The position numbers and the translations under genes are program-made. DNA of 64,000 bases from Lama glama. Lineage: Eukaryota. Location of the stretch: positions 77,934,001 through 77,998,000 of the forward strand of contig CM052822.1 of the NCBI GenBank assembly GCA_028534125.1, in the 5' to 3' direction. Shown here one piece after another: positions 19,694 to 49,187 of this stretch (within the stretch, counting starts at the first letter, position 1; the number at the start of each line of letters is the position of its first letter). A model generated the notes under the pieces. It had not been told where the DNA came from. It made no database searches and saw only the letters and a list, made by a program, of their open reading frames with translations.

Positions 19694-19804
19694 GTGGAAG
19701 TCACTTTGACAGTCCGTTTGAGTTTGGCTTCACATTCCGAAACCCAGAGGAAGTCTTCAGGGAATTTTTTGGTGGAAGGGACCCATTTTCATTCGACTTC
19801 TTCG
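19694..19804 (+). CDS. DNAJB6: DNAJB6 coding exon 5 (G/F region with autoinhibitory helix V)
   Basis: ttctgcag|GTGGAAGT...TTCTTCG|gtaagt; 111 nt; [37 protein letters not shown]. Confidence 0.97.
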
Positions 19805-20207
19805 GTAAGTTCCTCGTCTGGGCCGTCGCTGACGTGGCTGTCTGGCTCACGTGAAGACTGACGTCCTGTTTCTGTTTACCCACGGTTGGGACTTGTTCTT
19901 AAACTGTGTCTGAGCAGTGCAGGGGTTTAACCAGACCTCGTTTTCTTCTCCCTTTGGGAAAATGCTTTAAATTTAAGCCTTGCACATGAGCATAATAAAG
20001 GCTGTAATGTATCCATTTGCTGTTTTTGATTCTAATTAACTTCTTTTGCCACTGTGATTAGGCAGTGATAAGGTTGTGGACACGAAGGGCCCAGAAGTGC
20101 TGTTTCTGACTGAACAGTGAATTCTGTGTGAATTTGCCCTGTCACACCCTGAGTAGACACTGTGCATCATAGCAGATGACTTTGAGAAATTTGATCTGTG
20201 TGCGTGC

Positions 20208-20320
20208 TTTTTTTTTTTTAATTGAAGTATACTATGTGTCAGTTTCTGGTGCACAGGATAATGTTTCAGTCGTGCAATACAGACTGTGTCCATATTCCTC
20301 TTGCGCGTGCTTTTCTGATT
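20208..20320 (-). mobile_element. L1 3' end (cetartiodactyl-type)
   Basis: T-run + aattgaagtata...agtttctggtgcacag...tttcagtc, the reverse of the tail type seen at 59250-59330. Confidence 0.7.
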
Positions 20321-22242
20321 GTGCTGTGTTGTGACTGTCAAGGTCACACTTTCCGGGAAGAAGGGGCGTCTCTGGGATGAGGCGTCGCCGGTTCCCATCT
20401 TGGAGGGACAGTCATGCTCACGGAGACCCTGCCGCTCTAGCTGCTGCCTCGTCGTAGGAGAGGGTCTCTCAGCAGCGGCACGTCTGGCCCCCGTGCCCGA
20501 CTCGGGTTGTCCTGTGAGTCCTGGACGTGGGCAGTGTTGTGAGCCCACGGTGGTGTCTGCTGGAGCTGCTCCTCCGCTGCAGGGACTGTCCGGTGTGCTG
20601 GGTGACTTGGGAGGTTGGGCTCACTGCGCTGCTGTGGCCACTGTTGTCTTTCGGCTCATTGAGGGGAAACACATCCTGTGTTTGCCCCTTGGTTCCCGGG
20701 AGGCTGGTTGAGAAGACTGAACAGCATCTGTGGCCCCTCCGGAGGGAGACACGAAGCACAGCTCTGTGCACAGTCCCACAGGGAGACGGTGGGCCTTGCC
20801 CATCGCGGGCGCGAGGAGGGATCCTCACCGCCGTGTCTGGTAGGTGTTGGGCCTTTTAAATGGTGCACCCCTCGGTTTATTTCAGACGGGGGTTCGGAGA
20901 CCGTCCTTCGTTTTTTCTGTGGTGTGATGTGACTTTTTAAGAAGGGAGCTTATGGAGGGAGTGGTGTGTGTGTGTTAATGTATGTACTTTTTCACTGACA
21001 TGTGACAACAGGAGCTGATTGTGGGAGGAGACCATGAAAGGGTTTGGAAGACTTTCTGCTGTAATTACACGGCTACCGCAGACAGGCGCGTGTTGGGAAG
21101 GATCCCTGTGAATACAGACAGTAGCACATGTCCTTTATCAGTTGTCCTTCATGGACGTAAGAAATCTTACTGTAGGAAAAGCAGAGGATTCTAATTCTCT
21201 TTCCTGTCTTAAAATTACCTTTGTGTTTCATCACAGTCTGAGGCACACCCTAGAGCGTTGGTCTGGGGAGCAGGCAGTGTTGGGTGAGGCCTGTGTTTGG
21301 TAGCCCGCATCTCCTGGGCCCCATCTCTGTTCTCTGGACCTCCAGCTGCAGGTGGAGGCTCATGAGGCGGGGGCCCTGCCGAGGCCGGGCCTCTCTCATG
21401 TTGCTTGAGCACTTAGTTTCCTTTCAAAAGAAAGAACAGTGAGGGCGAATCCTTTAGTACCTGAATGGTGGCCAGATTTCGTTTTCCTGGGAACAGATCA
21501 GACAGGCCAGGCTTTCTCATTACAAGTGGCTTTCCTTGAGCAGCTCTTTCTAGAGTAAGGGTGGGTGAGTGAGTAACCATTACCCCACTGTCAGCTGTTA
21601 AACGTGCTGGCTCAACGTCTCCTAGACGGAGCACTGTGAACACGAAGCACTGGCGGGCACGTGCATTTCACAGAGAAGCGCGAGAGGTTGCCGCTGTGGC
21701 CCGCTCGCAGAAGTGCCTTCTGTTGGACTCAGAGCCGAGTTTAGGAGGTGCCCAGCCTTCCCGTAACTCAGGGCTCTCCAGCCTCTGCCTTCCATCCTGG
21801 GGCGCTTGAGGTTTTAACAGCAGACATTTCCCTGTGGTGCCCACAGGCGGTGTGGCAGTGATTCCGTCTTCATCCGTTCTAGGTGTTCTAGGTGCCTTCC
21901 ATTTTCAGGCTCTCAGGATTTACACACAGGAGGAGAAGCTGGCCCACGGCTACTGCGTGTCTGAGTTCACGGTGCAGTGCGCTGGCGGTACGTCCAGGGC
22001 AGATCCGTGGGCATAGGGCTGGGGGTTCTGCTTTGGTGGTGATTGGGTTCGTGTTTATCAGCTTCCAGATCCTGCTCCCTCAGCACTGTTGCCATGTCCA
22101 TTCATAGTAGTGCGTGGTCTTTTCATCTTCACTTTTGACACGACCCACTTTTCCCCCTCTCCTGTTTGGTTTACCAAAAAACCAAGAAAAATAGCTCGAA
22201 ATCTGTTAAAAGACATTTTGAGCTTGATTGTGCATTTGTCAG

Positions 22243-22329
22243 AATATAAAATGCCATGTCTGACTTCAGACTCCCCAAATAAAAGGGAAGGAAATGAGAA
22301 GAGCCAGCAAGCTGGTGGGGAGAGTGAAG
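22243..22329 (+). CDS. Candidate in-frame cassette exon in DNAJB6 intron 5
   Basis: catttgtcag|AATATAAA...AGTGAAG|gtatga; 87 nt, phase 1/1, no stop; (E)YKMPCLTSDSPNKREGNEKSQQAGGESE(G); a second in-frame acceptor at 22270 gives 60 nt. Confidence 0.4.
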
Positions 22330-47200: not shown

Positions 47201-48029
47201 TGGGCAGGACACGCAGGCCTCACGGAGCCCTCGGGACACGTCAGCCGGGGCCGCGGCAAGCACGTGTGTGTGAGGTTTGAGTCGGTGGGAAGGCTGGCGG
47301 GCGGGGGCACCTGCAGCCCTGCGGTATCCAAGGCACGTGCGTCTCCCTTGACCCCATGGGTCACAGGCGTCGCGGGCCGTTATGGATTGGCTGGAGGCGC
47401 CCACCTGACCGCCACCAGGCCCAGCCCGCCGGGGACTGCCGTTCTGTGAGGACCGGAGGCCCCGGCATGGATGCGTGAGGGTCCTGCCCTCCGTGTGTGT
47501 CTGCTCCAGAGGGGCGCCATCAAGTTTAAAATCCTGGCAGTGCCTTCAGGCAATCTTTCCAGCAGGCTTGGGGCCCGTGTGTGTTAAGTGCAGTGGTCCA
47601 GGCCGGGTCCAGGCAGGCCACCCCGTGGATCTTTTGTGACCCAAGGTCAGCATTGCGCTTCCCTGCGTCCCAGCCCTCGTGTGGATGGCTGGCTCCGGGA
47701 CAGAACCACTGGAGGGCGAGCGGGTCACGCTGGCTCCTTTGTCCGTGGGCTCCAGGCAGGCACATGACATGGGGGACGAAAGGCCTCAGCCACGTCGAGC
47801 CTGGAGCCCGCGGCCGGGCCGCGGGGGTGGCGGGCAGGGGCGGCTCTGCGGGGCTGTGGCGCTCTTTGGGTTGTGTTGAAGCTCTGCGTGAGTCCCCGTT
47901 TTCCCTGAGCTTGGGTGCGGACCAGGTGGAAGGGGGCGTGACCGGTGTGTCTTCTGACCTGGGGGGTGTTTGCCTCTCGGTGGGGAAGCAGCTGCTCCTG
48001 CCCAGTGTTTCACACGCCTGTTTCCTTAG

Positions 48030-48112
48030 GATTCAGAGAAGGTGGCAAGAGGAAGAAGCAGAAGCAGAAGGAGGAGTCGAAGAAGAAGAAGTCGACCAAA
48101 GGGCACCTCTAG
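48030..48112 (+). CDS. DNAJB6: DNAJB6 exon 10, terminal coding exon of isoform a (basic NLS)
   Basis: tttccttag|GATTCAGA...CTCTAG; 83 nt; GFREGGKRKKQKQKEESKKKKSTKGHL*. Confidence 0.95.
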
Positions 48113-49181
48113 ACGGGCCGCTCCGTGGCCGTGCGCGCGCGTTAGGTAGTGGCACCTGCTTCTCCACGTCCCGAGACCACACCTGCTCACGGCGCGGGGG
48201 ACGCGCTGGCCGACCCGTGGGGCTGGCAGAGGCGGGGAGGGGCCTACGGGTGGCGGTGGTGGGACGCGGAGCCACCCGGGCCGTCCCTGCCTCTCCTCCC
48301 CGGCTCTGCGCCGGGGGCGCCTCCCCGCTCCCCCGGCGCGCAGTGCCAAGACGCTTGTAGCTTTAGCTGTGTGCCCAGGACGGACGGCGTGTGCGTGTTC
48401 GTGGAGCGACCTCCTCTCCTGCTGGCCGCAGCGCTTGCCTCTAGACTCCAGTGCAGCGTAGGGAATGTAGAGGTGCCTCCTGAACATGGGCGGCCGTTCC
48501 TTGGTTTCAGGAGCCAGACCCTCACGGTGGCCCCTGGCCGGTCACGTCAGGCGTGTGGTCATCCTCGTGTTTGTGGTTTTAGTTTTAATCCTCTCCAGGG
48601 GTCCAGATGCAGCTGGAGTTATCCCACGTCTCTTGGACCCATAGCTGTTCTGGGCGTGTGCACGGGGTTCTACAGAGTTCGGTCTGGCCACACCACCCTG
48701 GCTCTCAGCTCCGGTCCTGCTGGAGGTTAGACAAACTCCCTGCACCTGGGTAGCTGTGCTCAGCCAGTGCCGGCTCCTCGGGGCCACTGCGCCCTGGACA
48801 GCTTCCCGCGGTTACTTCTCTGCGGGACGTGCCTCCTCCCCTCCCTCCCGCCAGGGCGACTGGACCCCGTGCTGCCCCCCTCCCCGCCCGCCTGCCACCT
48901 GCGGTCAGGCCCCCGGGGTCCCCCTCCCTTTGCTCTCAGACACTGGCAGCTTTTTTAAGTGGTGGCAGCTTTGACCCTGCAGTGTTGGAACTGGGCACCT
49001 GGGGCACGGCCCTCGCGGCAGCACCGCGGGCGTGGAAGCCAGGAACGAGCGTGCCCTGTGTTTGAAGGCCGGGTGGTGGCAGGAGGCGGTGCGGACTCGG
49101 GGGAAGAGTGGACAGGGTTTAATGCTTGGTGTGGAAAACGCAACCATGGAAGCATCGTGGGTTTTCAGTGCCCCCCACGTC

Positions 49182-49187
49182 AATAAA
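49182..49187 (+). terminator. PolyA signal AATAAA, isoform a
   Basis: First AATAAA seen after the exon 10 stop, about 1.07 kb downstream. Confidence 0.75.

Follow-up and report, generated by a model that had tools for sequence, protein, structure and literature searches.

Four predicted C-terminal ends on one DNAJB6 J-domain, among them a conserved CaaX tail read from intron 9

Introduction

How many C-terminal ends can DNAJB6 place behind a single J-domain, and how is the choice among them made? The question is raised by a stretch of 64,000 nucleotides from Lama glama (GenBank assembly GCA_028534125.1, contig CM052822.1, positions 77,934,001 to 77,998,000 of the forward strand; hereafter the window, in whose coordinates positions are given), the + strand of which encodes camelid DNAJB6. 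This protein is a major anti-aggregation chaperone and the product of a muscle-disease gene, that of LGMD D1, a limb-girdle muscular dystrophy. It is treated as the product of a two-isoform gene, and two isoforms are described (PMC10280091, PMC12162027, PMC5499812, PMC9737691, PMC7073051; here and below, papers are cited for the parts of them that were available to us). The choice between isoforms a and b sets the intron 8 donor against an intronic signal, with CstF64 and SRSF3 taking part, and as in the switch between secreted and membrane IgM, to which it has been compared, competition between splicing and intronic polyadenylation alters the C-terminus (PMC6330513). In human, this choice is governed by a CpG island that is bound by CTCF and located between the polyA sites of a and b (PMC12162027), and a review calls the determinant of the nuclear, nuclear-envelope and endoplasmic reticulum (ER) location of DNAJB6a completely unknown (PMC7073051).

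A first-pass annotation of the window proposed that DNAJB6 has four C-terminal addresses, each given by a stop codon and a polyA signal reached at a phase-1 junction, and that the competition known for a and b recurs at exon 9, where it would toggle between a nuclear localization signal (NLS) and a membrane-directing CaaX tail. What it said of the a/b choice agrees with the literature, in which the IgM comparison had already been drawn (PMC6330513). We found no publication on a CaaX or acidic DNAJB6 among the titles and abstract starts searched, which left subscription journals mostly uncovered; supplements of prenylome studies may list DNAJB6. As far as searched, both forms are thus annotated as database models yet unstudied.

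Results

Four stop codons of DNAJB6 were located on the + strand, on which the DNAJB6 features described below lie: TAG ending at 23353 (acidic form), TAG ending at 30977 (isoform b), TGA ending at 44239 (CaaX form), and TAG ending at 48112 (isoform a). The hexamers that accompany them are AATAAA at 23333, 31567, and 49182, and ATTAAA at 44282. Exons 5, 8, and 9 (numbered as in the human DNAJB6 papers) have phase-1 ends, and each of the four routes can be read without interruption up to its own stop. The four pairs foreseen by the first-pass annotation are therefore all present at their positions with open frames, with three corrections. For the acidic form, joining exon 5 directly to the acidic exon does keep the frame, but this misses a 105-nt exon (21883-21987) that belongs to the annotated form. 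The stop and AATAAA of this form exist as well, but not in the order stop-then-signal, because the hexamer (23333-23338) lies within the coding sequence, 13 nt 5' of the stop. The CaaX pair also exists, although with ATTAAA, a weaker signal, as its hexamer; another ATTAAA of intron 9 lies at 45216. Altogether, four real protein ends on one J-domain are supported, as is a predicted choice between the NLS and CaaX tails at the exon 9 donor, which conservation and a paralog strongly back.

Exon 9 (43854-44069, 216 nt) ends in the donor GCAG/gtgtgc. Skipping this donor would carry translation 56 codons into intron 9 and give a CaaX tail (44070-44239, from the start of the intron) ending in the conserved LCCCVLT (44216-44236), the protein being 358 aa long here and 334 aa in human. 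This end consists of the CaaX box CVLT, in which Cys at -4 and aliphatic residues at -3 and -2 precede a free C-terminus, and of two upstream Cys; these are predicted farnesyl and palmitoyl sites. CaaX proteins were gathered by similarity to the tail of the window (17 proteins) and to a lemur tail (25), together with cluster members, and one CaaX-ending protein was counted per species, which makes 31 species (30 from the database plus the window); same-species extra records, the yak P0220 (with an odd middle) and P0049 were not counted. Cys at -4, Cys at -5, Leu at -2, and Leu at -7 each occur in 31/31 species, Val at -3 in 30/31, Thr at -1 in 30/31 (Ala in 1; the yak record also ends with Ala at X), and Cys at -6 in 26/31. 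At positions -15 to -30, the commonest residue is shared by only 9-20/31 species, and the tails vary in length from 34 to 114 aa. Conservation is confined to the last seven codons before the stop, 34-114 codons past the donor, and the frame survives large indels in the linker. By comparison, a strict CaaX end was found in 4/1,100 intronic stop-ended frames, and Cys at -4 in 44/1,100. The species with a CaaX tail span primates including human, rodents, bats, carnivores, horse, pig, and shrew. The human record XP_005249572 (334 aa) ends in RLGCCVLT, ruling out that human has lost the tail through a stop.

The linker of the tail contains an in-frame Pro/Ala tandem-repeat expansion (44092-44196), which differs by +15 and -42 nt in camel-like contigs with the frame kept; at this position pig and shrew carry in-frame expansions of their own. 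A complete 333-aa CaaX form is encoded by one Logan contig (1,104 bases), which implies a spliced mRNA or a retrocopy made from one. Among 21 matches in the llama's own genome, none was a retrocopy of exon 9 or the CaaX tail, the other 20 being Pro/Ala repeat only. The CaaX tail is very probably translated and under selection.

The paralog DNAJB2 has the same arrangement. In the llama genome, the C-terminal domain (CTD) exon of DNAJB2 is followed by a 207-nt ubiquitin-interacting motif (UIM) exon, which is phase 1 at both ends and whose start aligns with that of DNAJB6 exon 9, and the two donors are near-identical (GCAG/gtgggc in DNAJB2). Reading through the DNAJB2 donor leads to an RCLIL tail with a stop 152 nt past the donor, while splicing to a site 1,125 nt on leads to DVF-stop. 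No AATAAA occurs until 2,084 nt past the donor, and the equivalent intron is without a polyA hexamer. DNAJB2b (HSJ1b) is geranylgeranylated and ER-bound (PMC7073051, PMC10586202). Like DNAJB6, it is a class B J-domain chaperone with a CaaX box directly behind the phase-1 GCAG/gtg donor of the homologous exon that follows the CTD, and the spliced alternative is a short soluble or nuclear end (PMC7073051, PMC10586202). The two proteins differ in that DNAJB2b ends in C[LH]IL, while DNAJB6 ends in CVLT preceded by one or two Cys (predicted farnesyl plus palmitoyl), and in that the DNAJB6 intron is longer (3,960 versus 1,125 nt) and holds a candidate ATTAAA. The start of exon 9 aligns with the first UIM region, but Pfam gives no UIM there at E up to 1 (a DNAJB2 control being absent). 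Moreover, DNAJB2b is the main neuronal form, whereas the CaaX form of DNAJB6 appears minor. Fish DNAJB2 records include CaaX-ended long forms. The CaaX read-through of both genes may date from before their duplication. Two distant DNAJB6-like J-proteins, P0328 and P0335, end in CAIL and CVLL, which hints that CaaX ends are more widespread in the subfamily.

The chemistry of the tail can be predicted from its last residues. Farnesylation is predicted over geranylgeranylation because X is Thr or Ala, never Leu; Thr may also be accepted as a farnesyl X residue. According to the published lists, farnesylation takes Met, Ser, Ala, and Gln as X and geranylgeranylation takes Leu or Ile (PMC13524398). 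In H-Ras, RhoB, and TC10, Cys upstream of the CaaX box are palmitoylated, which shifts these proteins from the ER to the plasma membrane or endosomes (PMC2193662). The DNAJB6 tail resembles theirs in having Cys just upstream of the CaaX box and a few basic residues, and it differs in that its Cys are adjacent (CCC instead of CXXC), that it sits on a chaperone, and that its modification is only predicted. Farnesyl and palmitoyl groups on LCCCVLT would hold the full chaperone (J-domain, glycine/phenylalanine-rich (G/F) region, S/T region rich in serine and threonine, CTD, and exon 9) on membranes. Because of the upstream Cys next to the CaaX box, endomembranes or the plasma membrane, not the nucleus, are its predicted location. 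By its motif, the CaaX form is likely to be prenylated and, with slightly less assurance, membrane-bound. In human its mass is 36.66 kDa, against 36.09 kDa for isoform a.

The fourth end belongs to a form in which splicing from exon 5 to exon 5A (21883-21987, a symmetric 105 nt) and on to an acidic last exon (22989-23353) would yield a protein without the client-binding domain. Most database models have exon 5A ahead of the acidic exon. Searches for the acidic form retrieved 23 proteins from elephant, armadillo, pika, rodents, colugo, carnivores, and ungulates, to which further look-ups added fruit bats. Over 18 species, the share of the commonest residue is 0.89 for exon 5A and, for the acidic exon, 0.80. 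The bovine record AAX46471, presumably a cDNA clone, has the acidic end, and we have little doubt that the acidic form is a real protein. It keeps the J-domain and the alpha5 helix (residues 96-104) and is without the S/T region and the CTD. The idea of four addresses thus holds for the number of ends on one J-domain but is too narrow for this form, in which an alternative pair of last exons takes the place of the client-binding half. In a structure model of the acidic form, exon 5A is predicted at low confidence as two beta strands (predicted local distance difference test, pLDDT, <50); the exon had no sequence match in the PDB at E up to 10 and no usable atlas hit.

The acidic tail has a net charge of about -31 here and of -29 to -44, with 6-10 CK2-type sites, across 21/21 proteins. 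A protein so charged, with alpha5 retained and the S/T region and CTD absent, could work without SUMO, its tail folding onto the basic face of the J-domain or binding basic clients such as histones, and would then be a dampened or client-specific co-chaperone. This is possible, if on balance doubtful, and speaking against it is that the acidic exon is most strongly conserved in a hydrophobic-then-SSEE motif and not in charge alone. The motif in question, LDVVSSEE (23069-23092), resembles a SUMO-interacting motif (SIM), its hydrophobic residues, Ser, and acidic residues fitting the consensus, and L-D-V-[IV]-S-S-E-E is found in 20/21 acidic proteins. With this predicted motif the tail would dock on SUMO-tagged proteins. 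The closest parallel is the phospho-SIM of PML, in which a hydrophobic core is likewise followed by SSEE and CK2 phosphorylation increases SUMO affinity (PMC4276917); here, unlike there, the motif is on a J-domain protein and SUMO binding is only predicted. That the acidic form is a SIM-bearing, SUMO-directed polyanionic Hsp70 adaptor retaining the alpha5 brake is nevertheless rather improbable as a complete description.

Where the acidic exon begins, the LC3-type motif FEEV is not constant (F in 14/18). A Rab-like CC end of the acidic tail was considered and rejected: alpaca has KFCC, camels have KFCY, and other mammals stop earlier, the camelid frame being about 25 codons longer than theirs. 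In camelids (23333-23365), the acidic frame crosses its own AATAAA and stops 13 nt later, within the span where cleavage usually takes place. A cut made too early would leave a non-stop mRNA, whereas cleavage after TA would let the polyA tail complete a TAA. The WNK codons found at this hexamer recur in the fruit-bat models P0215 and P0375. The llama genome yielded no intact single-exon SUMO gene; one of its loci (L020:1450-1641) is a frameshifted SUMO2-like processed pseudogene.

How the CaaX mRNA ends bears on how the choice at exon 9 is made. As in the a/b switch, a donor at a phase-1 junction is skipped and an intron-encoded tail follows (PMC6330513, PMC10280091, PMC5499812, PMC12162027), but the use of an intronic polyA site and its control by CstF64, SRSF3, CDK12, and CTCF are, in the available parts of these same papers, known for intron 8 only and for two isoforms. 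With respect to IgM, the polarity at exon 9 is reversed, the read-through form being the membrane one. Intron 9 (44070-48029, 3,960 nt) would be kept whole in the CaaX mRNA, which would use the distal polyA site, and we lean towards this retention as the main route. It is favored over an intronic polyA switch because contigs pass the hexamer at 44282 and because the equivalent DNAJB2 intron is without one.

The contig evidence comes from 4 of 24 listed runs, compared with positions 43500-45000. The fourth of these, the single-cell run X20, contributed no record and so carries no weight. X1, X6, and X9 are contig sets guessed to be RNA; they are camel-like and represent one organism, the exon 9 differences matching camel records. 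The contig joining exon 9 to exon 8 has a depth of 218.6 in X1 and 249.2 in X6, and a second contig exits exon 9 into intron 9 at a depth of 11.1 and 20.4, or approximately 5% and 8% of the exon 9 depth, respectively. The intron 9 records of X1 and X6 (378 + 3,680 and 3,986 letters) come near the length of the intron, their first 930 nt having been compared; they keep the frame (+15 and -42 nt) and, among the differences listed, leave the last 12 codons unchanged. Of intron 8 (350 nt examined), nothing is covered in X1 and X9 and 71 nt in X6. The read-through contig passes ATTAAA 44282 unbroken in 3/3 sets covering it, with a depth in X1 of 11.1 across the hexamer and 10.2 beyond, although contigs cannot show 3' ends.

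Several observations weigh against whole-intron retention. Expression is poorly measured by contig depth and the intron 9 signal may be unspliced nuclear RNA, and in X9 the 5' end of the contig covering exon 9 is unrelated sequence, which makes exon 9 depth there unreliable. Others speak for the IgM-like course that the first-pass annotation had in mind, in which the CaaX mRNA is cleaved at ATTAAA 44282 and competition between CstF64 and U1 toggles between nucleus and membrane, the protein remaining the same. The required signal is there, in the intron behind the skipped donor: ATTAAA (44282-44287), a candidate weak intronic polyA signal 43 nt past the CaaX stop, stands in 65% GC sequence with a G/U-rich stretch behind it. 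In the 20 kb of 32001-52000, 6 hexamers occur on the minus strand, so one lying at most 100 nt from a given stop is expected by chance in about 3% of cases, and intron 9 has 2 ATTAAA against 0.05 expected under a first-order model. In addition, a switch of this kind is proven for the next exon upstream (PMC6330513), the 1,104-base Logan contig stops within about 100 bases of the CaaX stop, fitting an intronic end, and X9 has a depth of 13.4 in the contig that includes the hexamer against 9.4 in one farther on. Set against the unbroken contigs and the hexamer-free DNAJB2 intron, cleavage at 44282 seems unlikely to be the main route. So while the NLS-or-CaaX choice at the donor is sustained by conservation and the paralog, the proposed end at 44282 is one that the contigs run past. 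Retention and intronic cleavage may both occur, and the distal AATAAA (49182-49187) of isoform a probably serves most CaaX mRNA as well. With the CaaX stop inside the last intron, no exon junction would lie 3' of it. That the intron 9 read-through is untranslated RNA, unspliced or detained in the nucleus, with conserved codons acting as an RNA element and models as by-products, is very improbable: its low level, the non-conserved camelid, horse, guinea-pig, and turtle models that also end past exon 9 and indicate that annotation catches noise here, and the lack of a publication on the CaaX form would fit, but conservation sits exactly at the last seven codons, far past the donor and in a frame kept through linker indels, and the equivalent DNAJB2 tail is a proven protein.

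Camelid models place a non-conserved exon at about 44812-44900 in intron 9 (peptide VTTAGCEV at 44828), which is probably annotation noise from abundant intron 9 RNA.

The remaining exons complete the gene. The a and acidic isoforms rebuilt from the window are letter-identical to the C-terminal parts of the alpaca proteins P0025 and P0002. A Pfam scan of the window protein gives DnaJ, and the DNAJB6 architecture of J-domain, G/F, S/T, and CTD with the a and b ends was found; within the readable sequence of the window, no first coding exon could be located. Common to all forms are exon 3 (16974-17083), which encodes the J-domain with its HPD motif, exon 4 (18869-18928), and exon 5 (19694-19804), the last exon shared by the four, which encodes the G/F region with the alpha5 autoinhibitory helix (placed by the structure model) and ends in phase 1. 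They are followed by exon 6 (28673-28804), exon 7 (30226-30367, S/T-rich region), and exon 8 (30872-30942, CTD, with the phase-1 donor). Reading through that donor gives the isoform b tail and stop (30943-30977, 241 aa), and the use of the human counterpart of its AATAAA (31567-31572) is published (PMC6330513); an extra ATTAAA lies at 31208 in the b 3' untranslated region. The coding part of exon 10 (48030-48112) gives isoform a its Lys-rich NLS tail (329 aa). Intron 8 contains CpG-rich blocks at 33001-34000, 37001-38000, and 43001-44000. The DNAJB6 repertoire may exceed four forms because in some models, from elephant seal, colugo, squirrel, and pig, exon 5A or a portion of the acidic exon serves as an internal cassette.

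Discussion

The explanation that we consider reasonably probable as a whole comprises four ends, a lipid-anchored CaaX form made through intron 9 retention, and an acidic form docking on SUMO-tagged proteins. A number of points tell against it. Most records of the CaaX and acidic forms are predicted models. Since the 31 species were picked out by tail similarity, species having lost the tail stay invisible, and the similarity search retrieved no CaaX record from mouse, rat, afrotherians, xenarthrans, or marsupials. The camelid records that were listed, 3/3 from the alpaca cluster and 15 from among the 25 of the camel cluster, are all without the CaaX tail, and the sole bird read-through, the partial swift P0222, is without CaaX. 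One upstream Cys is lost in human, and Thr is not among the X residues of either prenyltransferase in the available part of PMC13524398, in which Ala is listed for farnesyltransferase. On the acidic side, a second SIM-like motif is present in 19/21 proteins but missing from both camelids, pLDDT is <50 nearly throughout the tail in the model, and no primate record was found among the acidic-form searches, which is weak evidence of loss. The swift protein crosses the exon 9 donor as SG-VHKH, resembling the mammalian G-V[QH]R start.

A more far-reaching combination can be offered only tentatively, as it is unlikely to hold in full. In it, an overlooked farnesylated and palmitoylated DNAJB6, inherited together with DNAJB2b from a common ancestor gene, would be hidden in the DNAJB6a gel band (36.7 versus 36.1 kDa in human), would carry the LGMD D1 mutations, and would account for some of the 'DNAJB6a' observed at nuclear envelope and ER; the fourth, non-primate form would be a SUMO-directed J-protein, and the exon 9 choice would be regulated by tissue or stress.

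For a gene treated as having two isoforms, this has several consequences. A lipid-anchored form of near-equal mass makes the question of DNAJB6a location directly testable. Disease mutations sit in the J-domain and the alpha5 region, which all four forms have in common, and with intron 8 splicing blocked, the CaaX form would be lost together with isoform a. If primates do lack the acidic form, rodent and livestock models would express a DNAJB6 that is absent in patients.

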